Assembly (NCBI GenBank): GCA_964187785.1
Contig: OZ076409.1
Coordinates: 45,200,001-45,264,000, forward strand
DNA length: 64,000 nt
Direction of reading: 5' to 3'
Source: Amphiscolops sp. MND2022
Lineage: Eukaryota
Shown: piece by piece, positions 3,669 to 35,327 of the stretch
Layout of the letters: the number at the start of each line of letters is the position of its first letter
How positions within the stretch are numbered: position 1 is the stretch's first letter
Notes under the pieces: generated by a model
Told to the model about the DNA's origin: nothing
The model's input: only the letters and a program-made list of their open reading frames with translations
Database searches by the model: none
Position numbers and translations under genes: made by a program

Positions 3669-3733
3669 TCTGGGGATCGAACCCACTGTCTTTTGCACCG
3701 AAAGCTAGCGCGCATCCTTTTTGCCAAACTGCC
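3669..3733 (-). mobile_element. tRNA-derived SINE-like head
   Basis: The minus strand has an A-box-like TGGCAAAAAGG and a B-box GGTTCGATCCC at tRNA-like spacing, but no intact cloverleaf. Confidence 0.5.
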
Positions 3734-6304: not shown

Positions 6305-6766
6305 GTCATTTACAAATGCCTTCTAGTGACCGATTCAAAATTTTCAAAACTTTTCAGTACTTTGACGCTTTGAAGTCCTTTTGCTATTTTCGCGCCTTAG
6401 ACATGGCGCCGACTTGGGCCGGCCCCGGCTTGTTTAAACTTTCATTTAGACGACAGACCTTCATGAGACCGAAGACCAATATATTTTCTTGACGTTTTCT
6501 GTAAATGTCGAAGTTAAACAAACGGGCTAACGAATGTCATTTACAAATGCCTTCTAGTGACTGATTCAAATTTTCAAAACTTTTCAGTACTTTGACACTT
6601 TGAAGTCCTTTTGCTATTTTCGAGCCTTAGATATGGCGCCGACTTGGGCCGGTCCCGGCTTTTTAAAACTTTCATTTAGACGACAGAGCTTCATGAGAAC
6701 GAAGACCAATATATTTTCTTGACGTTTTCTGTAAATGTTGAAGTTAAACAAACGGGCTAACGAATG
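6305..6766. repeat. Two-copy tandem duplication, unit ~231 bp
   Basis: GTCATTTACAAATGCCTTCTAGTGA starts at 6305 and at 6536; the units are highly similar. Confidence 0.9.
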
Positions 6767-11885: not shown

Positions 11886-13371
11886 GCATCATAGGAATCA
11901 TGATTTTACAATCAATTAAAGACTTCACTCTCTGCAAGAGATTTTACAATGTAACAAAACTTTGTCTTCGAACTCTTCTTTGTAGAGAATATAAAAGAGT
12001 TTTTTGACAATTACGACAAGGTGGTCATTTGCAAAAATTTTTTTGAAATGCCTCCTCGAAACGATCAATGTACCAGGCGGCACAAAAAAGATCACTTCAC
12101 AACTGCGTACAGTAGAATATCTATCCAGAGAAAACTTTCAAGTGACGATTTCAATTTGAGGATTTGATATCAAACATACCTAACGTTTTCGTTGCTGATA
12201 AAAAGCAACTGCTTCCGCTGTTACTTCGAACAATTCGAAACTTAAGATCGAAATAAGTTCAAATTTCCTCACCATTATAATTAAGAATATTGGTTGACGA
12301 AAAAGTATGGAGTAGTGTATTTTTCATCATTACCACTATCTGGTTATCTACCGGAGGGACTCGACTAGTTTTGATCTCTTTTCCTGTCCAGATTGGATTG
12401 TTATTTGCTCTGAGTCATAAAAGTTGTTATTCTCCTTTCCAATCAAACAAACGTTTCTTTTTCTTTCAAAACATCATAGGGTCTTTTATTTTTCTGGGCC
12501 TAATTGAGAACTACATTAATTTGAACGTTCCCTGTTTGCTTATAATTAGGTGATGGTCATATTGGTACCCTCACTCTTCTGACATCCAAAACAAATGAGA
12601 ATGCGACACAGGCCGAAACAAATGCCATTGCCGCCGCTGCTCTCTGGACTGATTTTTTAGTTACACTAAACAAAAATAATTTCAAAAGGAGTTGCGAAGT
12701 GAGTTGAAACCCAAATTATGAGGATTTGCCATCCTGGCTTCTAACAATGTCAGGACGTTTTTGAGTGTCGTGATTTGCATTGATTTCTAAATTATCAGCA
12801 GCAGAAGTATCTGCGGGTTCAAAATGAGGTTCAAGAGAATTGACCTTCGCACAAAACATAGACTTGACAGCCGCACTTTCGAACAATTGTGTCTGAGAGA
12901 TTTGTTGATACGTCGCATTATTGCTGGCCCTCTGCATATTATTTTTCTTGAAGTTGTCTAGTCCTCTTGACATCCTTTGATTCATTTCCTCTGCCAATTT
13001 TGCCACTTTCTCGACTATGCTATTAGTTTCTTAATAATTTGTTTCTGTCCTACTGTGATACTCTGTTAGCTTCATTATATCGCAAAAATTTGCGTCTATT
13101 GGTTAACAGGGCTTTTTCAATACTCTGGTTTGGTCCATCGGACTCATTCATCAAGTTATAATTCATGCTCTATACAGATCAGATTACCATTTCCGATCAA
13201 TGAGTTCAAAATTAGACGTGATGTCAGGTTCAAATGACCTCTTTGCTCTGTTCTCACGATGCTACTTCGAGATTAAAAGGTCTAATAAACAGCAATGATA
13301 TGTAAACAGGATAAAGCGGTGTATTTCAGTTCCACATTCAGGTCGGTGGTAGGTTCCGTTCCACATTGCAC

Positions 13372-13474
13372 TTCGGTTTTCATTTACTCTGACCGGTTCC
13401 AAAGGTACATAATAGTTTCAGAACTCAAAGCTATTATGTACGTTTGGAGCCGGTCAGAGTAAATGAAAATCGAA
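13372..13474. repeat. Inverted repeat / hairpin with a ~47-bp stem
   Basis: TTCGGTTTTCATTTACTCTGACCGGTTCCAAAGGTACATAATAG...CTATTATGTACGTTTGGAGCCGGTCAGAGTAAATGAAAATCGAA; duplicate at 42101-42203. Confidence 0.9.
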
Positions 13475-15774
13475 ATGATAGTTGCCTACTTTCGTCGTCC
13501 AATCAGATTTGCGATCGGCTTTATATTTGTTCTTTTTGAAGCTCGTTCGGTTATACGAACGGTTACCATTCGGGTCATGTTGACGTAATTGTCAAATGTT
13601 GGCATTGTTTATGAACAGTGCTTCCAATTAAAGCAGCACTACGTGTAGGAAGAAGAGGGTATCAAAGGAAGTGGAAGGCGTAATCTTTTTGAGACATTCG
13701 CTGAGTTTTTTTGAAAGCCTGTTTGGACACATTGCACTAATTTTAAAAAAAAAAACTTGCCAGCATGACATTTACTTCAATTATTACCGAGGGTTGCTAC
13801 AAATATCTGACTGCCCCATCACTGAACAATTCAAGACTGGAGCTAAAACTCAAGATGGCGCGTCCCTTCATTTTGACGCGTTTCCTTCTACAGTTGCAAA
13901 CTGCCATCGTTCATTTCTATCAAATCACAGCTTTCATGAAATTTTATGGAAAAACTTTAGTGATCTCGCAAGTAATCTTGAATTGCAACCCCTGCGCCAC
14001 CTGACACTGAATTGCGAAACAACCACAAGTATGAATTGAGAATGGATACTTTTTACAGCACTTGGGTTAAGTAGGTGCAAAAAGTGAACACTTTGAACCA
14101 GAGCCGCATATGCGGTAAAGGAGTCGGCTTAGGTCTGTTTCCTTCTGACTCGCTCGAATCCCAGCCATAAAAATTTATTGAAATTGCACACATGGGACCA
14201 TATTGTAGAAATGGACTGTAGAAAATTTCGTTCGAATCGTAAGGACATATTTTGAGAAAATCGAAAAAAGTCGAAAAATGACTGTTTTTTGGCCATTTTT
14301 GGCTGTTTCTCAGATCCCAGTCATACGATTTTGATGCCTTTGCGCACGCAGGGACCCCTTTGGGTGTAGAATAACTGCAAAATTTAATAAAAATCGTATG
14401 AACAGTTTGAGAAATTAGAAATTTTCATTGAAAGGTCGGGAGAAAAAAAAACACGATTGCATAAGTAGTCGAACATTTTTCCGACTCCCTAAAAACGCCG
14501 TCAAAGGCGCGACGTTCAGGTGATTTCCTAATGTGACGTTTAGCAATAACTCCTTTGCTGGACAATGCGACGTTTAATGCAAAATGTAGGGTCTCATCTT
14601 CAAAAGTCGAAATACAGTCAACACATACGTCACCGCAGCTACATTGCTTATGAATTGAGATTGGTTGTTTTCAATTAGCGATTTCCGCATTTTTCCGGTT
14701 TAGGCAGAGATCAGTTGAGCCGTGATTGGCCTTGAATCCTACAAAACTATTTTTAGCAGAAACTTTTCTTTCCGTCGTTCTTTTTATAGGCTAGCAAACC
14801 AATGGTTAGATTTTCAGCCTCGGACACCAAAAACATCGACGTCCAGAACCTCGAAAACATTCTAAGGATGCCCACTTTGGTGTTTTTCACTCGGATTTTT
14901 TTCGTCACTATGCAACTTTTGAAATTTTTTGGATTGCACCAAAGGGTCTTCCAATTTTTTCTCGGAAATTTTCATATCTCCTAAGGGTCCCCCTTTCAAT
15001 TTTTTTCATATTTTGCAACCACTGGAGTTTCACAAAACCCAAAGGGCCCCCCCTTTTACAATTTTGAGCATAGATATAGCTCGGACTTTGGCAGTTTCCG
15101 GTTTGTTGGGAATAGGATGGGCTATTTCAAACTAAAGCGCTGACAATTTTGCCCGATTTTTTCTCTAATTCAATAATCAAGAATTTCCCAGTGTTATGTT
15201 TTCAATAGACAACGTCGGTGCCCAACTTAAGGCTCAAAAACAGCCAAATATTAAATTTGTTCTGGGATAATCAAGAAAAATCTCAGAAATTTTAGTGCCA
15301 GAGACCATTTTAGACCCCACAGTGCCGAAAAAAACAAAGGGAACACATTGGTTTCATCTACATTTGCCAACGCAAAAGTAGACGAAAAAATTAAAGAATT
15401 GGTTAGTTTGTCGTTTTAAAGAAGTTACAATAATAATCTGCATTTTAAAGAGAGTGCCGACTGAACATGGGATTTTCATGATTCAATGAACATATAAAAG
15501 TCAAATTTGTTCTTAAATTGTTGTTGTTAGCATAATGTTGACTATTCTTCAATGAAATATTACAACAATTTCGAGTTCCAATATTACCGAAATAATCGAA
15601 AAAATCCATCAGCATCTAAGTCTAAACTTTCAGAAACGAATGCTTATTTCCACAGAATTTCTCATTTTTAGAAACTTTTAGGCTTCTCATTTATTATAAA
15701 TTTGATGACCATATTAAAATGGAATGGTAAAAAAATGGTGTTGCAAAATGAATTGATAGTTTTTAGGAAGTTCA

Positions 15775-15987: not shown

Positions 15988-17550
15988 CTAATGAAATAGA
16001 GAAGAAGCGTTAACTGTTGCAGAGTCAGATTGAGGTTGAGTTTCGCTGGAACTGCAACTAATTGTGCAATTGGAAACATTGGTAGACTCTAATGTTGATG
16101 GTACGAATAATCTAACAGGTGCTGCCGCTGCTATTGCACTGTTTGATAAATTGCTGCTTGCTGCGTTCGTTGAAGCGGACCCACTACTGGGCGCCGCGTT
16201 CATTGATGATGCGGACACAACCACCACTGATGGACTGCTCACGCCCATCCTTTCAGAGCTCTCTGATGGCATAGTGGACGTCACCGCAGCAGAGTTGGTT
16301 ACACTGATAGGAACTGACCATGATGACATCGGAGGCTGATAACCCGGGTATACCAAACGGATGGGATTTCTCAACGCGTTTATCTGTCCTACCAGAGACG
16401 CATTCTCATGAGGACAGTCATTGCTTTTCTGCTGAAAAAAATCATACACCAGCTTGAGAGGGTTGCCTAAACCAACAGGTCCCCCGCTGTTGTTGTATGG
16501 ACCATTGATGATAGGTAGACCAGCGGGGCTTGAAGATGAAGGCGTCATGTTTGGAAAAACCCGCGTTCGAGAACCATCATTTGTGGGTGTTGTGTTGTTG
16601 TTCATATCGAGAAGCCCTGGTTTGTTATTACCCGTGTTGGAGTTCGAGCTGTATTTCCGACGTCTGGTATCTGTAGAGCCTCGCACATTTTGGCTACCTC
16701 GATTCATGTTTCTGTTGTAAGCACCAGCCGGATTAGCATTGTTGTTATTGCCACGTTTGACTGCATTATTGTTGTGAGGATGATAAACAGGACCAGTATT
16801 GCTATGGAAGCCTTTCGGTGGCCTCCTTTCATGTGATTTTAAGGTTGTGTTGGGACTACACAAAGTTTCATTCAAGTCATCGATACGGCAATTACCATAG
16901 CTATGACCTTCACCGCCACAGTTAGAACAACACTCACGCTTCGCTCTAACATAGTCATCGTAATTGACAGGTTCGCCGTTAACAGTGAGAAAAAAACGTC
17001 TCCAGTTTTCGGGACAAAAAGCTTTTTCATGGCCCATATTAGAGCACCTGTAACATTGGGATTTCAATTGGTGGCGTTTCGGACATTCGTTGTGAGAATG
17101 TCCGCTTTCCAGACAAACTGGACAAAGCTTGTAGGGACATTGGTTGTGATCAGTATGTTCATGGGAACAACAATTGGCACATATCCTTCGTCGAGCACCG
17201 TCTGCAGGGGTTATTCTTGGACAGTCTCGTGATAGATGCCCATAACATTTACAGTATTCACAGCATACGGGTATAACAGGATAGATATCGTTATTCACTA
17301 GAGAAACTTTTCCCTCCACGTTAACATTACCATTAAAATTGGTACTCAAGGGGAAATGTCTTGTTCCGGGGTTTTCATGCTCAAAATTCTTCACACCTTC
17401 ATTTTCCAAAACAAACCATGATATCATATCAACATTTTCTTTATCATCGTCGTCATTGGCATCGAATCCGACTTGAGCCATGAAAAATGAAGAATTATTG
17501 CTGGGACCTTTCAAGTTCTTACCAGACTCATTTCCAATTGAGTCACCCAT
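15988..17550 (-). CDS. ZCCHC7: Zinc-knuckle protein of the ZCCHC7/Air1-Air2 family (TRAMP RNA-binding subunit); may have further 5' exons
   Basis: Intact 520-aa ORF with five CCHC knuckles. CPENWRRFFLT follows knuckle 4, matching the IWRxY linker of Air/ZCCHC7. It has an N/S-rich low-complexity tail, an in-frame TTTCAG acceptor 15 nt upstream of the ATG, and AATAAA downstream. Confidence 0.8.
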   Translation of the reverse strand: MGDSIGNESGKNLKGPSNNSSFFMAQVGFDANDDDDKENVDMISWFVLENEGVKNFEHENPGTRHFPLSTNFNGNVNVEGKVSLVNNDIYPVIPVCCEYCKCYGHLSRDCPRITPADGARRRICANCCSHEHTDHNQCPYKLCPVCLESGHSHNECPKRHQLKSQCYRCSNMGHEKAFCPENWRRFFLTVNGEPVNYDDYVRAKRECCSNCGGEGHSYGNCRIDDLNETLCSPNTTLKSHERRPPKGFHSNTGPVYHPHNNNAVKRGNNNNANPAGAYNRNMNRGSQNVRGSTDTRRRKYSSNSNTGNNKPGLLDMNNNTTPTNDGSRTRVFPNMTPSSSSPAGLPIINGPYNNSGGPVGLGNPLKLVYDFFQQKSNDCPHENASLVGQINALRNPIRLVYPGYQPPMSSWSVPISVTNSAAVTSTMPSESSERMGVSSPSVVVVSASSMNAAPSSGSASTNAASSNLSNSAIAAAAPVRLFVPSTLESTNVSNCTISCSSSETQPQSDSATVNASSLFH

Positions 17551-20456
17551 GCATAGATGCTTCCCCTGAAATTACGACCAGCGTGCCCAACAAAAAGTAT
17601 AACTTTTGAAATGAAAACAGCGACATCAATCCAATTTCTTAAATATGAAGTCGGTGGCGACATTAAGAAATAGGGTTTCCAGTCATCTAGAGATATTCAA
17701 GAAGTAAAAGCATCAAATTTTGTAAAGGATGACTTCATATAAGGATGTCTCCAATATCGATCCCATGAAAATATCAAAGTAACGCGTAAAATATTCGAAT
17801 GCACTTTCATGATAAATGGTGAGTTCATTCATATCTCAAATTGAGTTTCCGTTGGTATACAAGAGGAAGATGGGTGAAAAAGATTTCATTGTTAGTCGAG
17901 ACGATTAGCATTTCAAACATTTTCTTTAACGCAAGATTTTCTCTGAACTCAAAATCTTTCCTTGCCAATCATTCCGACCTTCATGGAGTGAAAATGTCAC
18001 TTTTATGTCGCACATTGATGGGTAGAACTTGCACCCCTCAAGGACTACATATAATACTAGCTAATCTGCCTAATTAGTCTATGCTTTTGAAAAGTTAAAT
18101 TCTTTGTTGACAAATATTTTCGCATTTAGGTGAATACTTGAACACTTAGGTCACGTCAAGTCGCTATTTTCGACCAATAACTAAAACATGCCAATCATGC
18201 CTTAAAAGCCGTAACACTATACTTATGCGCTAAGCTATGTGTTGCGTAATATTTGTCATCAATTTATCAACAACTGCTTTGAAATGAGAGTTTGAGCCTG
18301 TCAATCAATCAATATGGAAAAAACTTGATTGAATTGACGTATAGATTATAGATCATAAATGGGGCTGAAACGACAGGTTCTTTTGGCTCAACAATAGTTG
18401 CGACAACTTTAGAAGTTTTGTTACGTAACTAAATGTCTAGTTTGAGCGATGGTGCGGATAATAGCAAAACGGGACTCACGACGATTAGCATTCCATGATA
18501 CCACCAAAATTAGCGACGACACGACGCTTACTAGTAAAAGTTTAGGTTTCATATGCAGAAACATTACATTTCAATACTTGAAAAATTTGCGAAAACAATT
18601 GGCTTTTTTGAATAGATTGATTTCAATTTTTCTTATATCGCAATTCGGTGATTACTAAAAACGTTTACCATTGTCGACCACTTTCTATAGTTAGGGGTAA
18701 AAACCCGACGTTGACGTCCACTATCGCAGATTCAAGGGCAAATTTTCGTACCACCGGCTGTTCTTAAAACTTTTTAATCGACGATCAATTTTCCTGACAA
18801 TATGTCAAAGAAATATCAAACAGAAAATGCAGTGTGGTCTCGCCTCATTACTGTCTCAGCCATAAACTGGCGACACTCTCTTATTGATTTTTTTGGAATC
18901 GAAAAAGATGGTGCATGATAGAATATAATTCCGAAATCACCGAGACTTCAGAATTTCTAATGACAACTTTTGGTAACTTGAATCACCGATCTGTGAAAAA
19001 TGTAGTCACCAAACCGGAAATTTCCACAATTGGTTGTATAAATTCGCCCGGGGATTGCAAGTCGATAAATTTTTCGACTGGCCAGCGAATCACCGCCTCC
19101 ACCCCAAAGGTTGTCGACTTTTGTTGAAGTATTTCTGAAGCAAAGCGCCTATCCATACCTCAAAACTGCTAACATCAACAGACACCAAATTATCCGTAAT
19201 TGATATAAAATGTCGTTTCAAATGAACAAAATTGCAAATGATTGACAATTGGTTTGAAATTATATTACTGTTCTCACGACCAGATGTTTAGTCACCATTG
19301 GCTCTGAAGTAACAAGATGAGAACGTCTCAAGTCGGTGCCACGTTCCAAAATAACTGAATCTTTCAAATAGGCTAAAAAGCTGTGACTATGAAAGTTTTG
19401 AAAAATCTCACATTGCCGAAAGCCACCTTTTCGGCATTTCCTGACTGGAAACAAAAATAAAGGGCGACCATTAGGTAAAACTTGAAAATAAAAGTGCCGA
19501 AAGAAAAACAGAAAAAGGGGGCTTAACACTTTTTTGTTTCGGTGATGCGAAAATGACGGAAATTTAAAGGACAGAGAATATAGCCTCTGTTAGTACTCTT
19601 TAGTTCTTAGGCTAGAAGCGTATCCGTTTCGCCACATTTGCGTCGTTTCGTCGCATTCGTGTCTGCCTTAACAAATAAAATGACTAATAGTCTGGCGAAT
19701 AACTAACTAGTTCAAGCAAACTAACTTGTTTCGTGGACAATTTTGCACCCACGTTTCATACATGTTTCAATGTAACCACAGACGAAACCGCACCCGGGTC
19801 AATTGGTATATCACATAAGATTCAAGAAAAAAACTAAGTTTTTTGCATGACAATATCTGTTTTTCATGCTGTTTATAAAAGTTGGACTGTTCAGGTCTAT
19901 TTCATGGTAACCTTTTCACCCGAGTTTTTTGGTTTCACTTTACTCAAGCCTTCACATTTTAGTTTCCCGAACTAGAGATGTAAAAAAATTACAACTGCGC
20001 AATAGTGGCTCATAGGATTCCATCTCTCAATGAAGCTTGATTTAGAAGAAATTGTGCGGAACAATTTTCAGCAGTTAATTCTGACTCTTTGCGATCGAAA
20101 TTTTTGGCATTTTGGGAATAACTTCTGAAGAAAGGACGTCTGAAAACTAATGTTTCAAGATATGAAATGAGCATGGCATGGCTTAAGACGTTATTCCTTC
20201 ACCCACAATTATTGTTACTAGCAAACCCTTCTCTCTGAAGGACAACAATCTTGCACTTCTGAAGTAACATCTTGGGTTTTGATTTGCGGTAAACGGTTAC
20301 AAAAAGACTCAATTTTATGTTTAAAAATTCAATTATCAAAATCTTCCATATACAAAACATTGTCTATAGAAACGTTTGAATTATCATCTACATCGGTGTC
20401 ATGTGAAAAAAACTTGTCATCACTTTTGCCAACTCGAAACGTTGGAGGTACTTGTT

Positions 20457-20935
20457 GAATGATCGTTGATCCCGAAGACCTTTGAAAGATCTTTGATCTC
20501 GCTTATCTGAAGATCCTCGAATGAGGATTAATCTCGAAAATCTTCCGAATACTCTTGAATGACCATTGATGTCGGAGATCTTCCAAAAATCCTTGAAAGA
20601 TCTTTGATCTCGAAGATCTTTGAATGATCTTCGATCTCGAAGATCTTTATCTTTCGAAGACTCTTGAATGATCTCTGATCTCGAAGATCTCCCGAAGAAC
20701 CTTGAATGATCTTTGAATTCGAAGGTCTTCCGGAGATCCTTGAATGATCTTTGATATCGAAGATCTTCCGAGAGTCTTTGAATGATAATTGATCTCGAAG
20801 ATCGTCCGAAAGTTCTTGAATGATTTTCCATCTCGGAGATCTTCCGATGATCTTTGATATCGAAGATCTTCCGAAAGTCCTTGAATGATAATTGACCTCG
20901 AAGATCTTCCGAAGATCCTGGCATGGTATTTGATC
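20457..20935. repeat. Short array of the 38-bp GATC/TCGA satellite (segment A1)
   Basis: Variants of TCGAAGATCTTCCGAAGATCCTTGAATGATCTTTGATC; duplicate at ~49200-49678. Confidence 0.9.
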
Positions 20936-21728
20936 TTCTCAAGGTCACTTTTTTCAGGAATATCTTTTGATTGACATACCATTTTTTAAAAGATCTTTCG
21001 ATTGTTACGTAATTTACTGTCAAGGTTGATTGGCTCTCTGATATTTGATCAGCAGTCAATTTTTAGAAAGAACTATTTTGAAGAGAACGATCCATAATAT
21101 GATATAACACTCTTCCCAAAAGTTTACGCTAGTAGTAAAAGTATATATGATCAATAAACTTCACTCAAAAAAATCTTCCCATTCATCTCAATTGTAAAAC
21201 TAGAAATCATAATTCGTTTCACAATTTAACAAATTTAGTAAATACGTTATTCTAGACGAGGGGTCAGTTAAATCTGTGAATGACAAACACATCACTAAAA
21301 TTACCATGACCGTCACTACTTTGTGAAAAATTTCAACCTAGGGACAAAATTTTAGAAACTACTAAATACTGTACTACTACGAAAACAATATTGAAAATCA
21401 ATTTGAAACGCTTCCAACGTCTAAAACATTAGCATAAAATCTAAAACAAAAACCCTTATCTACGGATTGTCGCGAAAGGAACTAAAAATAATAGGATGTG
21501 AAAGGATCACAGGGTTGAGTCAGTAGTTTTTCTTTAAAACTCATTATGAAAAGTTCAAGTTCATGAAATACACACTCAAAATCACTCAAATTGAAAAATA
21601 CAGCAATGTAATAAGCCACGTTCAAATGCCCTTGGTTTAGAAAACTCACTTTGACCTAACTATCTGACTCCACGGCATTAACAATGGTGACTTCCCATAG
21701 CTCCGAAAGCAAAATCGAGTGCCATAAC

Positions 21729-23154
21729 CAGGGGTCCGCAATTATTAATTGCAATTAAATTGGCATTTAAAATTTTAAAAACCAATTAATTGAAAATTGG
21801 ACACTTCATGAAACAATTATTGCAATAATTGGCAAATCAAAACAACAGTTGTCAATGCATAAATTCAGACAAAATTGATGAAAATTTGCCCAAAAATAAT
21901 GAACTCAAAGAGTCATTCAGTAGCGTTGACGACTTCGTTGACGAGACTCAGGTCCCACAGTCTCTTGTTCGACATCAGAAACAGCTGCTGCTCCAGATAA
22001 ATAGGTTGTATCTTCCGTCGCAAGTCATCATAAGCATATCCAGCCCGGCTGAAAAGTCTCTCCATCAAGTTCGACGTGGGAACCAGAAATCTGCAGTCCA
22101 AATATTTATCTGACCGCCGCTCGCATCTTCTCTTCCTCAGAATTTCCATGGCAAAATCCAAGGGCACTTCATTCTCCTTCCCCATCTCTTCAACTTCTTG
22201 GACATGAAGCCGCAATTTTTTCACGGCCAAGTTCTCTTGCAAAGTCAGATTCTCATCAGAGTTCAATATTTTTACGACGCCATTCTCGAAGTCTTTGTTT
22301 TTCACAATGCTACTATTGACATGAATATACTTCTTGCGACCATCGATTGACACCTTTTTGATGATTTCATCTAGCAGAAGGCGTGCACTTGCCATATCCA
22401 TGTCTGAGCGCTGAAGGGCAAGAGTAACCGATTTCAAGGGCTCCAAAAGCTCGCCGAGTTCTTTGAGACGAGCATCTTCCGCGGGGCATAGCATGAAGGA
22501 TATCATTGCTGGTATATGCTGTAGGTGATCTTTGATCTTCATGTATCTCTCAATCATTTGCATAACACTGAGCCAACGTGTAGTGTTATTGACAATAGGT
22601 GTTATTGGCGATCTCTTTCTCAACCCGATCAGAAACAAGGTGCATGTACTTCTCAAGGGTGTGAACAGAGATTTTATCCAACGACGAATATTTGCGTGTT
22701 AGGCTACTCTCCACAAATGAAAATGGCTTTAGTTCCATACACACCCATTCCAACCATCCGTATACAGTTTCACTCTTTCGACAATGCATAAATCGAAGCG
22801 TCTGCTGATCCGAAATAGATGTATTGTCGTTTCCATGTTGAGAACGGATATGTTGCATTAGGTTAGACCAGCCTGTACCATCTTTCCTTTTTAGAAGTTT
22901 TCCACAGTGGCACTTGTAAACATCATTCTCTAGTTTAGTGAAATACTTCTTCGTTAAAGCCTTGTAGTCTTTTGGCGCTTCAACTTTAGATGTCATTTCA
23001 AACCTGAAAAAGATAATGCATTGCGCTCAATCAATTATTGCAATAATTGGCTTGTTAATTTCCAATAATTGAAAAATGCAAGATGGGAAAATCAAATAAT
23101 TGATCAATTATAATTGCAATTATTGCTTCATCAATTTTTAATTGCGGACCCCTG
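21729..23154 (-). mobile_element. hAT transposon, internally deleted; transposase frameshifted in this copy
   Basis: Perfect 16-bp TIRs CAGGGGTCCGCAATTA and 8-bp TSD GCCATAAC, with an empty site at ~33799. Encodes a BED finger, a TRW motif and PTSNLMERLFS. Confidence 0.95.
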
Positions 23155-23708
23155 GCCATAACTGGGAATATTAATTCTACTTATCTTGGTAAATAATAAG
23201 TCTCAGCCCAACAGTGCTAATTTAAATAAAGGCGCTTCCGCAAACTGTTAACTTGAAGAAATCACTGGGGGAGAGCTGAGGGCATTGACAGTGCGGGGAA
23301 AGATGAAAAACAAACAACTTGTCAATAATTTGCCCACTTGCGCGAATTTTATGTGTGAAAATACGCTGGAAATTCGGAGCTATGACACTAGATTTTGAAT
23401 TCGGAGCTATGAGTAGTCACCATTAATAACAGTGCTAACACACTTATTGTAGCTTCTGCGGAAACCGCAAAGGTCACAGTTGATCATTCATGTAGATTAT
23501 TTTCTGCGATGTTTTTTTAGCTGGTAAGGAATGAGTGAAGACATAGTACAGGACACATAGCCCTTGATTCCCTTCATCACGGCAATTGTTTCTAGTACAA
23601 TCACAGCCAGGGGTGTTCAATAAATATTTATGGGTAAATGAATGTATTTTTACACTCAAATGAATATAAATATTTGTTTTTGGACCTGTTAAAATGAAAA
23701 TAAATATT

Positions 23709-23944
23709 ATATATATATATATATATTGATCTTCGGGGTGCTCCTTTTTGCGAGCCAGTACCATCGAGGATGTAGGATATAATGCTTATGGTTCGTGTTT
23801 GGGGCGTGCAAATCGTTCCGTCTGCTTGATGAATAGCGGGAGCTGTGAGTTTAACATGGATTCGGCGAGGTTTCCAAAGTTGAATTCACTCCGGATTTCT
23901 TCGTATCTGGGACTTTCTAATATGAAGTGGTGAACAGATTCTAC
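23709..23944 (-). mobile_element. 5'-truncated LINE insertion (ORF2 C-terminus, 3' UTR and (AT)n tail)
   Basis: Encodes VESVHHFILESPRYEEIR...FIKQTERF...*. It has an 11-bp TSD AAATAAATATT and an empty site at ~34350. The duplicate at 52452-52691 has (AT)11 versus (AT)9 here. Confidence 0.85.
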
Positions 23945-24211
23945 AAATAAATATTCTTGAGATAATTAAAACTAAGAGCGTTTAACTCAACATATCGTCA
24001 GCCAATTAAATTCAAAAAGAGTAATCTTGAGCTAATTTCCAGAAATACCTTTGTCAAGTACCTTGGACTACTGACTCAAAAGGTTGAAGAGTCCATTACA
24101 AAAGCCCTGTCGCCGCCTTTTGGCCTGATTATGATGTGTATACTGATTTATGCCATTATAAATTGCTGTAATTATTATATGTTTTATTTTAGATGTCGAT
24201 GTCCCTTTGAT

Positions 24212-24550
24212 GGGTGGGCGGAAATAGGTCGAAGGAACGGGATCGAAAATCAGAGTTAGTCCTCAGGTCGACATACCAAATTTTTGAATGGGATCGAGAC
24301 AACTCGGATCGAAATTTTTATAACGTAGTCAGATATGTTCACATACCCCTAGTGCCCTGAATGCAGGAGCGAAGCGACGTGCCATATGGCCATGCCTCAA
24401 TGTTGCTACTTGGCGAAGAGAGCGAAGCGACCACGCCATACAACAAATACGATAAAATTCGACCGCATTCCATTCGATCCCTGCAATTCGATCAAAAGGT
24501 TCGACCTCTGTCCTTTCGACCAGAAAAAATCGACCTATTTACTGCCACCC
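24212..24550. mobile_element. MITE family G (GGGTGG...CCACCC termini), insertion a
   Basis: Inverted termini with TCGA-rich subterminal motifs. TSD (C)CCTTTGAT; empty site at ~34615; duplicate at 52959-53297. Confidence 0.9.
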
Positions 24551-24778
24551 CCTTTGATATGTGCTTTGATATTTGCCGTCTAGTGAAAACTTGCTTTTAT
24601 AGAAAAGCGTTTTGATCTGCGAAAAAAACGACAATTGGTGTCCAGAGCAGAATACAATTCAAGGGCTTCGGGCAATAAGTTCGATTTACTAAGTTCGAAT
24701 TTGAACTAGTGCAATAAGTTCGAATGGAATAGTTTCGAGACACCAAGTTCGAATTTTCAAATCGGGCATATCCGGTGT

Positions 24779-25128
24779 GGGTGGGCGGAAATAGGTCGAA
24801 GGAACGGGATCGAAATTCAGAGTTAGTCCTCAGGTCGACAATACCAAATTTTTGAATGGGATCGAAACAACTCGGATCGAAATTTTTATAACGTAGTCAG
24901 ATATGTTCACATACCCCTAGTGCCCTGAATGCAGGAGCGAAGCAAAGCGGAGCGACGTGCCATATGGCCATGCCTCAATGTTGCTACTTGGCGAAGGGAG
25001 CGAAGCGACCGAGCCATACAACAAATACGATAAAATTCGACCGCATTCCATTCGATCCCTGTAATTCGATCAAAAGGTTCGACCTCAGTCCTTTCGACCA
25101 GAAAAATTCGACCTATTTACAGCCACCC
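24779..25128. mobile_element. MITE family G, insertion b (nested in T-a)
   Basis: 9-bp TSD ATCCGGTGT; empty site seen in T-b at ~27194; duplicate at 53526-53875. Confidence 0.92.
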
Positions 25129-25173
25129 ATCCGGTGTAAACTGGACATCATTCACACAAGAACCTGAGAGCTC

Positions 25174-25730
25174 GGTTACCAGTCACTTGGCTTAATACCA
25201 TTTGGCTTAATTTTTTCGTCGAGTCATTTGGCTTAAAAATTTTAAGCCAAGTGACCACAAAATTAGGCCAACTCCATTCCAACTCAAGGAATAAATATGT
25301 CAACTCCCGGAAATATCATAATGTGGGGCATATGCGGTGTATGCACGCTCGCCCTCACCGTCGCAAAGACAAGCTCCAACTACGATCGGTTCGCGATCTC
25401 CGTTCCCGCTAGGTCTTTGCTCCTGTTCTACCTCGCTCAGCAAGATGGGAACATAAGCGGCCCCAAGGGGCCGCAGGGCACTAGAGGAAATTGGGACATA
25501 TCCGAGGGGTACTTGATATGACACGTTATAATAATACGCTGACTACGTTTTAAAGATCAATTCGACAAAATCGGCCACGTGTTTCCAACTAAGTGGTTTT
25601 AAGTCAAATGACTTTAAGTCAAGTGACCAATACCCGAGACACTTAGCTTAAAAAAATTAAGCCAAGTGACCAATTGTATTAAGCCAAATGACTTAAAGCC
25701 AAATGGCATGAAGCCAAGTGACCATTTACC
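25174..25730. mobile_element. MITE family A (AAGCCAAGTGAC subterminal repeats, GG termini; Merlin/MULE-like), nested in T-a
   Basis: Ends GGTTACCAGTCACTTGGCTT and AAGCCAAGTGACCATTTACC. 8-bp TSD GAGAGCTC; empty site at ~27231; duplicate at 53921-54477. Confidence 0.92.
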
Positions 25731-26201
25731 GAGAGCTCCACCGCCTAGGATCTACAGGATTCTGAAAACTGAAATGCGGGGCATACCCGGTGTATGAACG
25801 CTCGCCCTCACCGTCGCAAAGACGAGGTCCCACTACGATCGCTTCGCGATCTCCGTTCCCGCTAAGTCTTTGCTCCTGTTCGACCTCGCTTAGCAAGATG
25901 GGAACATAAGCGGCCCCAAGGGGCCGCGGGGCACTAGATGAAATGGGGTAATATCAGTGGCACGTTTCATACTTAGTTCAAAATTCGTACACAGTGATTC
26001 GAACTTGTTCCGGTTTTTGGAAAATTCGAACTTAGTCCATTCGAAATTAAAATTCGAACTTATGGGTTCGAACTTTTTACCGTGCCCCATTTCAATGTTA
26101 GCATGCTTAAAAGTATCGCTGCCAGTTCCTTGTTCAACTCAATTGAAGAACTTCAAATCAGTTTGCGTAAACAACTACGAGGACTCGTCCATGCCGGTCC
26201 C

Positions 26202-26741
26202 GAATTCCGGACGTTTCGGCAAAAGACGTTTCGGCGAAAACATGGCAACGGACGTTTCGGCAAAAAAAATATGCCGAAACGTCTCAGGCTAAAAACATTT
26301 GCCGAAACGTTTCGTATGATGTGTGGGGCATATCCGGTGTATGCACGCTCGCCCTGACCGTCGCAAAGACCAGCTCCCACTACGATCGCTTCGCGATCTC
26401 CGTTCCCGCTAGGTCTTTGCTCCTGTTCGACCTCGCTTAGCAAGATGGGATAATATGCGGCCCCAAGGGGCCGCGGGGCACTAGAGGAATGGGATATATC
26501 CGAGGCACGTTTTATGCTTTGCATCATTCCTACATTAATGGTCTTATCGTTTTTCTTTCAATTTTTTCTTCAATTCCACAATTCTACAAACTGGTATTCT
26601 ACAAACTGGACCTAACCAGTTTGTAGAAAATCAAAAACATAACCAAGATAATACGAGACGTTTCGGCGTGAAAAATTTCGGCGCCCGAAACGTTTCGAAG
26701 TTTTTTTTGCCGAAACGTCTTTGCCGAAACGTCCTGTTCCC
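26202..26741. mobile_element. MITE family C (CCGAAACGTTTCGG subterminal repeats)
   Basis: Ends GAATTCCGGACGTTTCGGC and GCCGAAACGTCCTGTTCCC. 8-bp TSD CCGGTCCC; empty site at ~34826; duplicate at 54949-55487. Confidence 0.9.
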
Positions 26742-27087
26742 CCGGTCCCGGTTCCAGCCTGAACCCAGAGTCCGTGAACAAATCAAAAGACGTTTACAAC
26801 TATCTAAAGTCCGAAGAACTGAAAAATACGAGAATAACCCTGTGGCACAATCTGATTAATAATACTATCACACCCCACAAAAGTAATAACTATCAACCGC
26901 AAAGTGTAAATCAGCTTGCGGCTTCATTGAGAAGTCTCACAAACTTATGCGACATAGTTTATTGTCAACGTACAGGGTCCCCGAATATCTTTGAAGACCT
27001 GAGAACATTGGACTGCCCAATCATCCAAGTCACGACAGATATTTTGATCAAGTCAGAGCAGCGCACTGAAGTACTCATCGAGAAATA

Positions 27088-27596
27088 GCCTTCGGGCAAT
27101 AAGTTCGATTTACTAAGTTCGAATTTGAACTAGTGCAATGAGTTCGAATGGAATAGTTCCGAAACACCAAGTTCGAACTTCCATATCGGGCATATCCAGT
27201 GTAAACTGGACATCCTTCACACAAGATCCTGAGAGCTCCACCGCCTAGGATTTAAAGGAATCTAAAAACTGAAATGTGGGGCATATCCGGTGTATGCACG
27301 CTCGCCCTCACCATCGCAAAGACCAGCTCCCTCTACGATCGCTTCGCGATCTCCGTTCCCGCTAGGTCTTTGCTCCTGTTCGACCTCGCTTAGCAAGATG
27401 GGAACATAAGCGGCCCCAAGGGGCCGCGGGGCACTAGATGAAATGGGGAAATATCAGAGGCACGGTTTATACTTACGGTGGTTAGTTCAAAAATCGAACA
27501 CAGTGATTCGAACTTGTTCCGGTATTTGGATTATTCGAACTCAGTCCATTCGAAATTTAAATTCTAACTTATGCGTTCGAACTTATTACCGTGCCC
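27088..27596. mobile_element. MITE family T, insertion b (uninterrupted, 509 bp)
   Basis: 9-bp TSD CGAGAAATA; empty site at ~35162; duplicate at 55834-56342. Confidence 0.92.
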
Positions 27597-27634
27597 CGAG
27601 AAATACAAAGCCTTACATCATTCCAGCGAATAAT

Positions 27635-30600
27635 CTTTGATCCCGAAGATCTTCTGAAGACCTTTTAAAGATCTTTGACCTCGCTTATCTGAAGATCCTC
27701 GAATGAGGATTGATCTCGAAGATCTTCCAAATATTCTTGAATGACCTTTGATGTCGGAGATTTTCCGAAAATCCTTGAAAGATCTTTGATCTCGAAGATC
27801 TTCCGAAGAACCTTGAATGATATTTGAATTCGAATTCCTTGCTTAGATCTTTTAATGACTTTCAATCTCGACGATCCTCCGAATATCTTCGATTTCGAAA
27901 ATCTTTCGAAGATTCTTGAATGATCTCTGATATTGAAGATCTTCCGAAGGTCATTGAATGATCTTTGATCTCGAAGATCCTTGAATGATCTTTGATATCG
28001 AAGACCTCGGGAAGGCCCTTGAAAGATCTTTGAATGATCTTCGAACTCGAAGGTCTTCCAAAGATCCTTGAATGATATTTGACCTAGAAGCTCTTCCGAA
28101 GATCCTTAATGATCTCTGGTCTCGGAGAACGTCCGAAAATTCTTGAATGATAATTGATCCCGAAGATCGTCCGAAAGTTCTTGAGTGATTTTCCGTCTCG
28201 GAGATCTTTCGATGATTGTTGATCTCGAAGATCTTCCGAAGATCCTTGAATGATCTGTGTAATGGAAGATCTGCTGAAGGTCCTTGATCCCGAAGATCTC
28301 CCGAAGAACCTTGAATGATCTTTGAATTCGAAGGTCTTCCGGAGATCCTTGAATGATCTTTGATATCGAAGATCTTCCGAGAGTCTTTGAATGATAATTG
28401 ATCTCAAAGATCGTCCGAAAGTTCTTGAATGATTTTCCATCTCCGACAATTTTTGGAGGATCTTCGATCTCGAAGATCTTCTGAAAGTCCTTGAACGATC
28501 TTCGACCTCGAAGATCGTCTGAAGATCCTGTAATGATTTTTGATCTCGAATCCTTGCTTAGATCTTTTAATGACTTTCGATCTCGACGATCCTCCGAATA
28601 TCTTCGATCTCGAAAATCTTTCGAAGATTCTTGAATGATCTCTGATATTGAAGATCTTCCGAAGGTCATTGAATGATCTTTGATCTCGAATTCCTTGAAT
28701 GATCTTTGATATCCAAGACCTCGGGAAGGCCCTTGAAAGATCTTTGAATGATCTTCGAACTCGAAGGTCTTCCAAAGATCCTTGAATGATATTTGACCTA
28801 GAAGCTCTTCCGAAGATCCTTAATGATCTCTGGTCTCGGAGAACGTCCGAAAATTCTTGAATGATAATTGATCTCGAAGATCGTCCGAAAGTTCTTGAAT
28901 GATTTTCCATCTCCGACAATCTTTGGAGGATCTTCGATCTCGAAGATCTTCTGAAAGTCCTCGAACGATCTTCGACCTCGAAGGTCGTCTGAAGATCCTG
29001 TAATGATTTTCGATCTGGAATCCTTGCTTAGATCTTTTAATGACTCTCGATCTCGACGATCCTCCGAATATCTTCGATCTCGAAAATCTTTCGAAGATTC
29101 TTGAATGATCTCTGATATTGAAGATCTTCCGAAGGTCTTTGAATGATCTTTGATCTCGAAGATCCTTGAATGATCTTTGATATCGAAGACCTCGAGAAGG
29201 CCCTTGAAAGATCTTTGAATGACCTTCGAACTCGAAGGTCTTCCAAAGATCCTTGAATGATATTTGACCTAGAAGCTCTTCCGAAGATCCTTGAATGATC
29301 TCTGGTCTCGGAGAACGTCCGAAAGTTCTTGAAGGATAATTGATCCCGAAGATCGTCCGAAAGTTCTTGAATGATTTTCCATCTCGGAGATCTTCCGATG
29401 ATCTTTGATCTCGAAGATCTTCCAAAGATCCTTGAATGATCTTCGTCCTCGAAGATCGTCTGAAGATCCTGGAATGAGTTTCGATCTCGAATCCTTGCTT
29501 AGATCTTTTAATGACTTTCGATCTCGACGATCCTCCGAATATCTTCGATCTCGAAATCTTTCGAAGATTCTTGAATGATCTCTGATATTGAAGATCTTCC
29601 AAAGGTCTTTGAATGATCTTTGATCTCGAAGATCCTTGAATGATATTTGACCTAGAAGCTCTTCCGAAAATCCTTGAATGATCTCTGGTCTCGGAGAACG
29701 TCCGAAAGTTCTTGAAGGATAATTGATCCCGAAGATCGTCCGAAAAACCTTGAATGATTCTCCATCTCGGAGATCTTCCGATGATCGTTGCTCTCGAAGA
29801 TCTTCCGAAGATCCTTGAATGATCTTCGACCTCGAAGATCGTCTGAAGATCCTGGAATGATTTTCGATCTCGAATTCCTTGCTTAGACCTTTTAATGACT
29901 TTCGATCACGACGATCCTCCGAATATCGTCGATTTCGAAAATCTTTCGAAGATTCTTGAATGATCTCTGATATTGAAGATCTTCCGAAGGTCATTGAATG
30001 ATCTTTGATCTCGAAATCCTTGAATGATCTTTGATATCGAAGACCTCGGGAAGGCCCTTGAAAGATCTTTGAATGATCTTCGAACTCGAAGGTCTTCCAA
30101 AGATCCTTGAATGATATTTGACCTAGAAGCTCTTCCGAAGATCCTTAATGATCTCTGGTCTCGGAGAACGTCCGAAAATTCTTGAATGATAATTGATCTC
30201 GAAGATCGTCCGAAAGTTCTTGAATGATTTTCCATCTCCGACAATCTTTGGAGGATCTTCGCTCTCGAAGATCTTCTGAAAGTCCTTGAACGATCTTCGA
30301 CCTCGAAGATCGTCTGAAGATCCTGTGATGATTTTCGATCTGGAATCCTTGCTTAGATCTTTTAATGACTCTCGATCTCGACGATCCTCCGAATATCTTC
30401 GATCTCGAAAATCTTTCGAAGATTCTTGAATGATCTCTGATATTGAAGATCTTCCGAAGGTCTTTGAATGATCTTTGATCTCGAAGATCCTTGAATGATC
30501 TTTGATATCGAAGACATCGAGAAGGCCCTTGAAAGATCTTTGAATGACCTTCGAACTCGAAGGTCTTCCTAAGATCCTTGAATGATATTTGACCTAGAAG

Positions 30601-32965
30601 CTCTTCCGAAGATCCTTGAATGATCTCTGGTCTCGGAGAACGTCCGAAAGTTCTTGAAGGATAATTGATCCCGAAGATCGTCCGAAAGGTCTTGATTGAT
30701 TTTCCATCTCGGAGATCTTCCGATGATCTTTGATCTCGAAGATCTTCCAAAGATCCTTGAATGATCTTCGTCCTCGAAGATCGTCTGAAGATCCTGGAAT
30801 GAGTTTCGATCTCGAATTCCTTGCTTAGACCTTTTAATGACTTTCGATCACGACGATCCTCCGAATATCTTCGATTTCAAAAAATTTTCGAAGATTCTTG
30901 AAAGATCTCTGATTTTGAAGATCTTCCGAAGGTCATTGAATGATCTTTGATCTCGAAGATCCTCGAATTTTTGATATCGAAGACCTCAGGAAGGCCCTTG
31001 AAAGATCTTTGAATGATCTTCGAACTCGAAGGTCTTCCAAAGATCCTTGAATGATATTTGACCTAGAAGCTCTTCCGAAGATCCTTGAATGATCTCTGGT
31101 CTCGGAGAACGTCCGAAAATTCTTGAATGATGATTGATCCCGAAGATCGTCCGAAAGTTCTTGAATGATTTTCCATCTCGGAGATCTTCCGATGATCGTT
31201 GCTCTCGAAGATCTTCCGAAGATCCTTGAATGATCTTCGACCTCGAAGATCGTCTGAAGATCCTGGAATGATTTTCGATCTCGAATTCCTTGCTTAGACC
31301 TTTTAATGAATTTCGATCACGACGATCCTCCGAATATCGTCGATTTCGAAAATCTTTCGAAGATTCTTGAATGATCTCTGATATTGAAGATCTTCCGAAG
31401 GTCCTTGAATGATCTTTGATCTCGAAATCCTTGAATGATCTTTGATATCGAAGACCTCGGGAAGCCCTTGAAAGATCTTTGAATGATCTTCGAACTCGAA
31501 GGTCTTCCAAAGATCCTTGAATGATATTTGACCTAGAAGCTCTTCCGAAGATCCTTAATGATCTTTGGTCTCGGAGAACGTCCGAAAATTCTTGAATGAT
31601 GATTGATCCCGAAGATCGTCCGAAGGTTCTTGAATGATTTTCCATCTCGGAGATCTTCCGATGATCGTTGCTCTCGAAGATCTTCCGAAGATCCTTGAAT
31701 GATCTTCGACCTCGAAGATCGTCTGAAGATCCTGGAATGATTTTCGATCTCGAATTCCTTGCTTAGACCTTTTAATGACTTTCGATCACGACGATCCTCC
31801 GAATATCGTCGATTTCGAAAATCTTTCGAAGATTCTTGAATGATCTCTGATATTGAAGATCTTCCGAAGGTCCTTGAATGATCTTTGATCTCGAAGATCC
31901 TTGAATGATCTTTGATATCGAAGACCTCGAGAAGGCCCTTGAAAGATCTTTGAATGACCTTCGAACTCGAAGGTCTTCCTAAGATCCTTGAATGATATTT
32001 GACCTAGAAGCTCTTCCGAAGATCCTTGAATGATCTCTGGTCTCGGAGAACGTCCGAAAGTTCTTGAAGGATAATTGATCCCGAAGATCGTCCGAAAGTT
32101 CTTGAATGATTTTCCATCTCGGAGATCTTCCGATGATCTTTGATCTCGAAGATCTTCCAAAGATCCTTGAATGATCTTCGTCCTCGAAGATCGTCTGAAG
32201 ATCCTGGAATGAGTTTCGATCTCGAATTCCTTGCTTAGACCTTTTAATGACTTTCGATCACGACGATCCTCCGAATATCTTCGATTTCAAAAAATTTTCG
32301 AAGATTCTTGAAAGATCTCTGATATTGAAGATCTTCCGAAGGTCATTGAATGTTCTTTGATCTCGAAGATTCTCGAATTTTTGATATCGAAGACCTCGGG
32401 AAGGCCCTTGAAAGATCTTTGAATGATCTTCGAACTCGAAGGTCTTCCAAAGATCCTTGAATGATATTTGACCTAGAAGCTCTTCCGGAGATCCTTGAAT
32501 GATCTCTGGTCTCGGAGAACGTCCGAAAGTTCTTGAATGATTTTCCATCTCGGAGATCTTCCGATGATCGTTGCTCTCGAAGATCTTCCGAAGATCCTTG
32601 AATGATCTGTGTAATGGAAGATCTGCTGAAGGTCCTTGATCCCGAAGATCTTCCGAAGATCCTCGAATGATCTCTGATCTCGAAGATTTCCCGAAGAACC
32701 TTGAATGATCTTTGAATTCGAAGGTCTTCCGGAGATCCTTGAATGATCTTTGATATCGAAGATCTTCCGAGAGTCTTTGAATGATAATTGATCTCGAAGA
32801 TCGTCCGAAAGTTCTTGAATGATTTTCCATCTCGGAGATCTTCCGATGATCTTTGATCTCGAAGATCTTCCAAAGATCCTTGAATGATCTTCGTCCTCGA
32901 AGATCGTCTGAAGATCCAGGAATGGTATTTGATCTCAAAGATCTTCCGAAGATCCTTGAATGACA
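27635..32965. repeat. Long satellite array: 38-bp monomer in ~470-bp higher-order repeats (~5.3 kb)
   Basis: Landmark GACCTAGAAGCTC at 28081, 28795, 29266, 29649, 30120, 30591, 31060, 31530, 32001 and 32470. Confidence 0.95.
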
Positions 32966-34734
32966 ACTTCAGCAGTATTTCTTCCGATTTGATATGAGCA
33001 GTCTAGTTCTTTCTCAAGGTCACTTTTTTCAAAAATACCTTTTGATTGACATACCAATTTTTAAAAGTTCTATCGATTGTTACGTAGTTTACTGTCGAGG
33101 TTGATTGGCTCTCTGATAATCTTTCATCAGCAGTCAAATTTTAGAGAGAACTATTTTGAAGAGCACGATCCATAATATGATATACCACTCTTCCCGAAAC
33201 TTTACGCTAGTAGTAAAAGTATATATGATCGATAAACTTCACTCACAAAATTCTTCCCATTCGTCTCAATTGTAAAACTAGAATCATATTTCGTCTCTCA
33301 ATTTATTAACAAATTTGGTAAATACGTTATTCTAGACGAAGGGTCAATTAAATCTGTGAATGACAAACAGATCACTAAAATTACCTTGACCGTCACTACT
33401 TTGTGAAAAATTTCAACCCAGCGACAAAACTTTAGAAACTCCTAAAAACTGTACTACTACAAAAACAATATTAGAATACAACTTGAAACGCTTCAGACGT
33501 CTAAAACATTATCATAAAATTTTAAAAAAGCCCTTATCTACGGATTGTCGCGAAAGGAACTATAAATTAATAGGATGTGAAAGGATCAGAGAGTTGAGTC
33601 AGTAGTTTTTCTTCAAAACTCAACATTAAAAATTCAAGTTCTTGAAATACACTTTCAAAATCATTCAACTTGAAAAATAAGCAATGTAATAAGCCACGTT
33701 CAAATGCCTTTGGTTTAAAAATCTCACTTTGACCTAACTATCTGACTCCACGGCATTAACAATGGTGACTTCCCATAGCTCCGAAAACAAAATCGAGTGC
33801 CATAACTCGGAATATTAATTCTACTTATCTTGGTAAATAATAAGTCTCAGCCCAACAGTGCTAATTTAAATAAAGGCGCTTCTGCAAACTGTTAACTTGA
33901 AGAAATCACTGCGGTAGCTAAGGGAATTGACAGTGCGGGGGACGATGAAAAACAAACAACTTGTCAATAATTTGTCTACTTGCGCAAATTTTACGTGTGA
34001 AAATAATACGCTGGAAATTTCGGAGCTTTGACACTAGATTTTGAAATCGGAGCTATGAGTAGTCACCATCAACAATAACAGTGCTAACACACTTATTGTA
34101 GAGCTTCTGCGGAAACCGCAAAGGTCACAGTTAATCATTCATGTAGATTATTTTCTGCGATGTTTTTTAGCTGGTAAGGAATGAGTGAAGACATAGCACA
34201 TTACACATAGCCCTTGATTCCCTTCATCACGGCAATTGTTTCTAGCACAATCACAGCCATTGGTGTTCAAGAAACAATTATGGGTAAATGAAATTATTTT
34301 TACACTCAAATGTATGAAAATATTTAATTTTGGAGCTGTTAAAATGAAAATAAATATTTTTGAGATAAATAAAACTAAGAGCCTTTAATTCAACATACCG
34401 TCAGCCAATTGAATTCAAAAATAGCAATCTTGAGCTAATTTCTAGAAATACCTTTGTCAAGTACCTTGGACTACTGACTCAAAAGGTACAAGAGTGCAAT
34501 ACAGAAGCCCCGTCGCCGCTTTTTGGCCTGATTATGATGTGTTTACTGATTAATGCCTTTAATATATATTGCTGTAATTGACACATGTTTACATATATTT
34601 GAGATGACGATGTCCCTTTGATATGTGCTGTGATATTTGCCGTCTAGTGAAAACTAGCTTTTATAGAAAAGCGTTTTGATCTGCGAGAAACACGACAATT
34701 GTTGTCCAGACCAGTATACATTTCAAGGTTAGCA

Positions 34735-35327
34735 AGCTTAAAAATTATTGCTGCCAGTTCCTTGTTCGTTTCAATTGAAGAACTTCAAATCAGTGTGCGT
34801 AAACAACTACGAGAACTCGTCCACGCCGGTCCCGGTTTCAGCCTGAATCCAGAGTCCGTGAACAAGTCAAAAGACGTTTACAACTATCAAAAGTCCGAAG
34901 AATTGGAAAATACGAGAATAATCCTGTGGCACGATCTGATTAACAAGACTATCACACCCCACAAAAGAAATAACTATCAACTGCAAAGTGTATATCAACT
35001 TGTGGCTTCATTGAAAAGTCTCACAAACTAATGCGGCATATTTTATTGTCAACATAGAGGGTCCCCGAAAGTCTTTGAAGACCTGAGAACATTGGACTGC
35101 CAATCATCCAAGTCACGACAGATGTTTTGAGCAAGTCATAGCAGCGCATTGAAGTACTCGTCGAGAAATACAAAGCCTTACATCAATCGAGCGATCTCCA
35201 ACTCAGATCCCTAGGTGTAGTCCTAAAATATTGTCCGAACCTGAAGCAGATCTTGAAAATAAGAGGCACCAAGCGAAGAACTCACGAGCAACTAAGAGAG
35301 GCTAAGAGAAAAAGAGAAGACAACTAA
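34735..35327 (+). pseudogene. Full-length but disrupted paralog of the unknown ~197-aa ORF
   Basis: KIIAASSLF...IILWHDLINKTI...YKALHQS...KRKREDN*, with two stops and a frameshift; duplicate at ~62335-62927. Confidence 0.5.

Follow-up and report, generated by a model that had tools for sequence, protein, structure and literature searches.

A core predicted to fold, shared by four foldback MITE families and apparently exchanged between them, in Amphiscolops sp. MND2022

Described relatives and the carrier elements

Tm1 of root-knot nematodes, a Phantom-like Mutator/Foldback family, has composite TIRs made of 13–15 bp repeats, asymmetric terminal motifs of ~7 bp and 9-bp duplications, and among its non-autonomous members Tm1-HH has a conserved internal hairpin, the histone stem-loop (PMC3169594). 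Muta1 and other Aedes MULEs (type-2 foldback) have long TIRs and duplications of 8 or 9 bp; in the Aedes MULEs subterminal repeats of 9–15 bp bind the transposase, and their derivatives share their ends and have heterogeneous interiors (PMC5225508, PMC5499845). On the side of single-stranded DNA, HUH enzymes recognise hairpins (PMC10288648), and in some of the bacterial REPs associated with HUH transposases the 5' head is GTAG and the caps read GCGNAGC (PMC2817692, Table 1). Mini-hairpins of the GCGNAGC type are found at single-strand initiation sites of phages and plasmids, and their stability is far higher in DNA than in RNA, with the RNA figure taken from the four-base-loop form (PMC13037366).

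The interior of a MITE is usually seen as inert filler between transposase-binding ends. In the window, i.e. the whole stretch of 64,000 nucleotides analysed here, it is the interior that is conserved and seems to have been exchanged, and a signature of ssDNA folding sits inside cut-and-paste elements. Six carrier insertions belonging to four families, G, T, B and A, were defined against the empty paralogue at 34300–35250 or, for the two nested in T1, against T2 (Table 1). Empty paralogous sites are present for the carrier insertions and all six have target-site duplications. The arms of all four families are long TIRs made of spaced, family-specific short subterminal repeats; they give no alignment with each other, and the only parts that can be aligned across families are the cores of T, B and A. 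Judged by eye, T, B and A have a clear asymmetric terminal motif of ~7 bp outside the repeats and that of G is nearly symmetric. All six independent cores lie near the centre of their MITE, at 0.45–0.62 of the element length. Based on structure the carriers are assigned to four Mutator/Foldback-like MITE families. The earlier note, which had described G as a fourth MITE family, missed the Mutator/Foldback nature of the carriers. Merlin elements have similar duplications together with GG ends and would be a possible alternative assignment. No cognate MULE transposase was found among the frames scanned (20, then 60 of the 104 listed).

The nearest precedent found is Tm1-HH, which resembles the present elements in carrier anatomy and in having non-autonomous members with a conserved internal hairpin. 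However, Tm1-HH is one TIR family with a histone stem-loop (PMC3169594), whereas the multi-hairpin core described here is common to four families with unrelated arms, has DNA-type caps and bears signs of exchange. Compared to the Aedes MULE derivatives the situation is reversed, since it is the interior that the families have in common and the ends that set them apart (PMC5225508, PMC5499845). Among the papers searched none described eukaryotic MITE families with unrelated ends and a shared folded core; an earlier catalogue entry, e.g. in the Repbase reports, is possible. Familiar carriers seem in this case to hold an unusual, exchanged and strand-specific core, the function of which we infer below.

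The six insertions crowd, together with a 224-bp insert (23721–23945), within positions 23155–27627, while the paralogue at 33799–35170 is empty, and this segment is an insertion hot spot. In family T a second copy of the cassette end motif is located ~75 bp from the core (24766–24778 in T1; 27188–27204 in T2), and in T1 this copy is the insertion point of G2. A fifth foldback element, at 4383–4960, has 17-bp repeats in its arms and lacks the core.

Table 1. Positions of the carriers, boxes and hairpins (positions in the window unless a contig is named; structures are predicted)
Feature	Position	Strand	Remarks
G1, foldback MITE, family G	24212–24550 (339 bp)	+	8-bp target duplication CCTTTGAT; empty site near 34610
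G2, family G copy	24779–25128 (350 bp)	+	9-bp target duplication ATCCGGTGT; nested in T1; empty site in T2
T1, foldback MITE, family T	24663–26087	-	split by G2 and B; 8-bp duplication (7/8 match); core 25774–25937
B, foldback MITE	25174–25730 (557 bp)	-	8-bp duplication GAGAGCTC; core 25321–25484
A, foldback MITE	26202–26741 (540 bp)	-	8-bp duplication CCGGTCCC; core 26321–26484
T2, uninterrupted family T copy	27088–27596 (509 bp)	-	8- or 9-bp duplication; core 27274–27437
G tail 5' of box1 (AACGT...GATAT)	G1 24322–24348; G2 24890–24916	+	
box1 CTAGTGCCC	G1 24349–24357; G2 24917–24925	+	CTAG predicted unpaired
box2 ATG...TTGCTA	G1 24392–24408; G2 24970–24986	+	
box3 CATACA	G1 24437–24442; G2 25015–25020	+	
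G spacer-1 hairpin	24363–24382	+	tandem G.A, GCGAAGC cap; loop in G2 has 10-nt extension; predicted
G spacer-2 hairpin	G1 24411–24438; G2 24989–25016	+	GCGAAGC cap; two tandem G.A motifs in G2; predicted
Cassette 90-nt rod hairpin	27300–27389	-	three tandem G.A motifs, two larger G.A-bracketed loops, GAA cap; predicted
Same rod, other cassette copies	25347–25436; 25800–25889; 26347–26436	-	predicted
Perfect 8-bp GC hairpin, TT loop	27410–27427	-	between box1 and box2 of the cassette
G-type tail relics inside B	25504–25549	-	exact 11-mer 25539–25549 and diverged G tail ending at CT of G's CTAG
G.A mini-hairpin 13-mer, viral contigs L041–L046	around 601–623; in L045 482–504		

Boxes shared by family G and the cassette

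The core of T, B and A, a 164-bp cassette, and the core of G have three short boxes in common. The coordinates that the earlier note had given for them in G1 and G2 proved exact, and the conserved box order that it described was found on the minus strand of all four independent cassettes (B 25484, T1 25937, A 26484, T2 27437). When comparing G and cassette, box2 matches at 12 of 17 positions. The motif beyond the CTAG, claimed to be shared as well, is present in the form AACGT, 6–7 nt, GATAT, 11–13 nt, CTAG, but T2 reads AACCGT and the nearest copy in B is degenerate. Two further corrections concern B, which reads CCCT like G and has a mutated cap, and A, in which box2 begins ATTAT. Only the two G and four cassette copies were counted as independent, because the copies near 53–56 kb lie inside the 28.7-kb tandem duplication and are ~99.5% identical.

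The cores, delimited by eye, were compared between G and cassette by gapped local alignment. In the eight pairings the scores were reached by 0, 22, 5, 0, 0, 3, 2 and 0 of 4000 dinucleotide shuffles, and the T2 score was reached by 2 of 1284 real windows. In the control with the core-less foldback element, 1485 of 3000 shuffles reached the score. Chains of exact words on whole elements gave a weaker result (22, 110 and 0 of 500 shuffles, the 110 belonging to A), and nhmmer with G2 as query matched the cassette only at E 1.7. From these comparisons the relationship between G and cassette is real but distant. The spacers do differ between the two core types, as had been claimed, their alignment being no better than that of shuffles (178–3684 of 5000 and 2214–2593 of 3000).

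Predicted hairpins and the folding strand

The 90-nt rod of the cassette was found with a strand-symmetric aligner that accepts Watson-Crick pairs only. The sequence common to the four copies gives this rod 27 Watson-Crick pairs, plus 16 non-canonical appositions. Each of the 16 is G.A, G.G or G.T and mirror types are absent (p 3e-5 relative to an even split, 3e-4 relative to the core composition). Five mirror-type mismatches occur, in single copies only, and stem from private mutations. Five of the seven internal rod loops have G first and A last on both strands, which is the register of sheared G.A pairs. The sequence GCGNAGC occurs 8 times in the 854 nt of the cores compared to 7 times in 35,246 nt elsewhere, and all eight copies in the cores are on the CTAG-first strand. 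Selection on one folded strand, proposed in the earlier note, is supported by both the G-type appositions and the one-strand caps.

With standard DNA energies the cassette has a z of about -2, and with RNA energies it is the opposite strand that folds best (z -2.5 vs -1.9). A G.A-aware capped-rod score, devised after the motifs had been seen, was reached by none of 300 shuffles for T1, T2 and A, whose other strand scores 0; for B the score is 0 owing to the mutation in its cap. Ranking 43 non-satellite caps by the G.A-aware score placed three cassette rods as 1–3 and the G2 hairpin as fourth. The count of tandem G.A motifs alone is significant for T1 only and not for the other three cassettes or for G (2621–2867 of 3000 shuffles). 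Ordinary folding tests thus have a blind spot, as they miss G.A-rich rods.

In the comparison with shuffled controls that the earlier note had suggested, the G spacers do not fold better than shuffles under standard energies (DNA z +0.1 to +1.3). That they form stem-loops holds in a limited sense, since ordinary folding does not reveal it but hairpins are predicted once G.A pairs are allowed. Both G hairpins use the same motifs, namely the GGAGC...GCGAC tandem and the GCGAAGC cap, and the capped-rod score of the G copies was reached by 2, 2 and 0 of 300 shuffles, the opposite strand scoring 0. The 10 nt by which G1 and G2 differ make the spacer-1 hairpin longer in G2, and the GAA cap is kept in the twin of G2 while G2 itself has AAA. 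As a purely structural interpretation, the G hairpin may be regarded as a shortened rod.

The proposal that looped-out hairpins bring the boxes together could be sustained for two of the three boxes. In both core types box2 lies on one side of the foot of the second hairpin and box3 on the other; under DNA energies they pair with each other in G, not in the cassette, and the extended rod of the cassette also draws them together. Box1 is not drawn to the other two (at most 0.14 expected pairs), and its CTAG is unpaired at 0.83–0.87 under DNA energies.

Apparent exchange between families and possible functions of the core

In the 147 nt from CTAG to CATACA there are no fixed differences between T, B and A, all substitutions being private, and the identity between families (137–141 of 147) equals that within family T (141 of 147). 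Beyond these 147 nt another 17 nt are common to T, B and A and end at one shared point. On the other side, the 35-nt tail past the CTAG is identical at 24–27 of 35–37 positions between families compared to 31 of 35 within T. Invariant columns number 132 of 147 in the core and 17 of 30 in the tail (p 5e-5), and the sequence beyond the tail is unrelated between families. Because G tolerates very different spacers, the identity of the core is read as recent transfer and not as base-by-base constraint. Judged from these sequences, the core looks to have been recently replaced or exchanged between families with an edge at the CTAG.

Additional signs of replacement are found inside B, where a cassette-type tail and then the core directly follow a diverged G tail. 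The match to the G-type tail was reached by 1 of 5000 shuffles, and none of 1609 real windows reaches 26 compared to the 32 observed. The tails of A, T1 and T2 have no significant match to that of G (648–1273 of 5000). B therefore looks like a former carrier of a G core, which would tie both core types to one slot, and the CT/AG junction is seen in this one element only. Both the identity step at the CTAG and the G-type tail in B had been missed by the earlier note.

The core was also compared to elements that move through single strands. Helitron HLE1 resembles it in having a hairpin near a terminal CTAG (on one cassette strand), no target duplication at the core edges and variable ends, but on that strand the core is without the TC start and the A|T target, the folding strand is the other one and homology continues past the CTAG (PMC11417382). 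A hairpin followed by CTRR is present in all four cassettes on the CTAG-last strand, G has only a 4-bp stem there, and on the folding strand the core ends CACA/T. A Helitron 5' TC and A|T insertion was looked for on the CTAG-last strand, where the core starts (A)TGTG and the nucleotide after the CTAG is A (4 of 4 cassettes) or G (2 of 2 G copies). On the other strand the TAG has TC before it in four of four cassettes and in neither G copy, with a preceding A only in family T. By these criteria (PMC11417382) the core is not a canonical Helitron. Terminal inverted repeats of 11–18 nt with a 3' stem-loop and a T|T target, as in HLE2/Helentron elements, were not noticed at the core edges. A reading of CACTAG as a CACTA end was rejected as it has no inward-facing partner end.

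REPs with their RAYTs share with the core an unpaired tetranucleotide 5' of strand-specific hairpins, some of them capped by GCGNAGC (PMC2817692, PMC3733652), but the head is here CTAG and not GT(A/G)G, the module is 94–164 nt long with three boxes, and the host is eukaryotic (PMC2817692). No RAYT was found among the frames scanned (20, and 60 of the 104 listed). Replitrons, described from plants, algae and protists, resemble the cassette in the short direct-orientation motif at both of its edges, but G has one copy of the repeat and the frames scanned contain no Rep gene (PMC10288648). The motif concerned, similar to ATATGYCCC, is located at both edges and in the interior of the cassette.

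Our preferred reading, held tentatively, is that the three-box module of the four MITE families is a ssDNA signal which is nicked at the CTAG by a HUH-type enzyme and copied between MITEs. Mutator-type transposases would move whole carriers by acting on the arms, and the module would fold once its strand is exposed, be it during replication, during gap repair or as the loop of an element folded back on itself. The foot of the rod would then join box2 and box3, leaving the CTAG single-stranded 5' of the hairpins, where the folded strand could be nicked by a HUH-type enzyme acting in trans and encoded at another genomic site. Such a nick may seed the copying of the module from one MITE family into another and give the recent exchange with its junction at the CTAG. 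The weakest step is the assumption that the exchange is started by a dedicated HUH nuclease and not by host repair. Breakpoints in a conserved box are also expected from ordinary homology-driven conversion, and among the frames scanned in the window (20, and 60 of the 104 listed) no HUH family was found. In the window there is no solo core outside a MITE, all eight strong nhmmer hits being inside carriers. A bolder version, which we consider doubtful, is a eukaryotic REP-like parasite of parasites in which the CTAG-nicked module homes into the centre of any Mutator/Foldback MITE, replaces its older self and rides on the transposases. If the core is a nicking or priming signal, it would offer a testable handle on the high copy numbers of cut-and-paste MITEs and on the reason why interiors are common to unrelated families.

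Three other roles of the core, and one explanation by chance, were weighed against the nicked signal. The core could be a transposase-independent propagation enhancer, e.g. a priming site or a site excluding SSB/RPA, that aids the re-copying of MITEs in gap repair and spreads by host template switching at the shared boxes without a dedicated nuclease, which is possible but somewhat doubtful. It would fit that all six independent cores are central and none solo, that primase sites are marked by mini-hairpins, to which SSB binds poorly (PMC13037366), and that Muta1 can move by its ends alone (PMC5499845), so that a kept interior would need a separate benefit; but the junction in B is out of register (G tail, cassette tail, core), which is not what simple homologous conversion would produce, and the fifth foldback family has spread without any core. 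Passive cargo of the Pack-MULE type, captured several times from an element of high abundance (e.g. a non-autonomous Helitron) in which its structure had been selected, and with no role in the MITEs, is unlikely. Heterogeneous captured interiors are known in Mutator derivatives (PMC5225508), Tm1-HH carries its histone hairpin (PMC3169594), the cassette hairpin stops 10 nt before the end on the CTAG-last strand like that of Helitron right ends, and the opposite core junction is at one place in three families. However, captured cargo agrees poorly with a slot that holds two diverged core types and with homology continuing past the CTAG into a family-specific tail, and the window contains no donor copy.

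Multicopy small-RNA genes have a near-identical body and flanks conserved only at spaced motifs. The near-identical 164-nt body with its spaced flank motifs would match this general picture if the core were a small structured RNA gene spread by MITEs, with the AACGT/GATAT tail as upstream promoter, and this we regard as quite unlikely. The G.U and tandem G.A pairs fit RNA equally well, and by eye a shared AGCGASGT word could pair with box2, with a C-G/G-C swap between the types; but Rfam gave no match at gathering score and none over the cores up to E 10, ARAGORN found no tRNA, there is no common T-run after the core, and the caps have three-base GNA loops, which are typical of DNA (PMC13037366). 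Readings as hammerhead, HDV, H/ACA and histone stem-loop were dropped by eye against consensus features. It is very improbable that the boxes common to G and cassette arose by chance or by low-complexity convergence of unrelated MITE interiors. The weak nhmmer match, the word chain of A and the delimitation of the cores by eye would allow it, but the shuffles in all eight pairings, the G-type relic in B and the same position and folding strand relative to the boxes all argue against it.

Pattern scans beyond the window gave 20, 0, 6 and 37 loci in viral contigs, 0 loci for the three boxes and 15 for the tail with two boxes in metagenomes, and 5 loci in prokaryote genomes; on inspection none of these 83 loci had three boxes with the hairpin architecture. 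Using blastn, the loci L001–L040 gave one 26-nt match to the elements and nothing else, and neither the cassette against plasmids nor G against phages gave a match. In the metagenome contig L033 (1–74, minus strand) boxes 1 and 2 are separated by GC-rich palindromes in AT-rich DNA and the contig edge comes before any box3, a likeness that is probably due to chance. Six related viral contigs (L041–L046) have the same G.A mini-hairpin 13-mer just 5' of an ATG and after promoter-like hexamers (Table 1), which was rejected as a homologue of the core.

When analysing the rest of the window, a head-to-tail segmental duplication of ~28.7 kb was identified (7418–36062 and 36059–63644), 99.4–99.5% identical outside satellite and 99.5% between 23155–27627 and its twin. 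A GATC/TCGA-rich 38-bp satellite with ~148 copies and a higher-order period near 470 bp occupies 27628–32964 and 20452–20936. A single ORF on the minus strand (15988–17550) encodes a 520-aa protein with multiple zinc knuckles, which we take to be Air/ZCCHC7-like; all its look-alikes are eukaryotic and two relatives are 62% and 46% identical. Other transposon sequences are a Tc1/mariner transposase in two frames (9806–10610, plus strand) with HTH_Tnp_Tc3_2 and DDE_3 domains, and the remnant of a hAT-like BED-finger transposase, split at 21913–22996 (minus strand) and present as one 361-aa frame in its duplicate at 50656–51741 (minus strand). Near-perfect long palindromes, two of which abut, were found at 3403–3614 and 13369–13477, and a tandem duplication of 230 bp, 95% identical, is located at 6305–6767.
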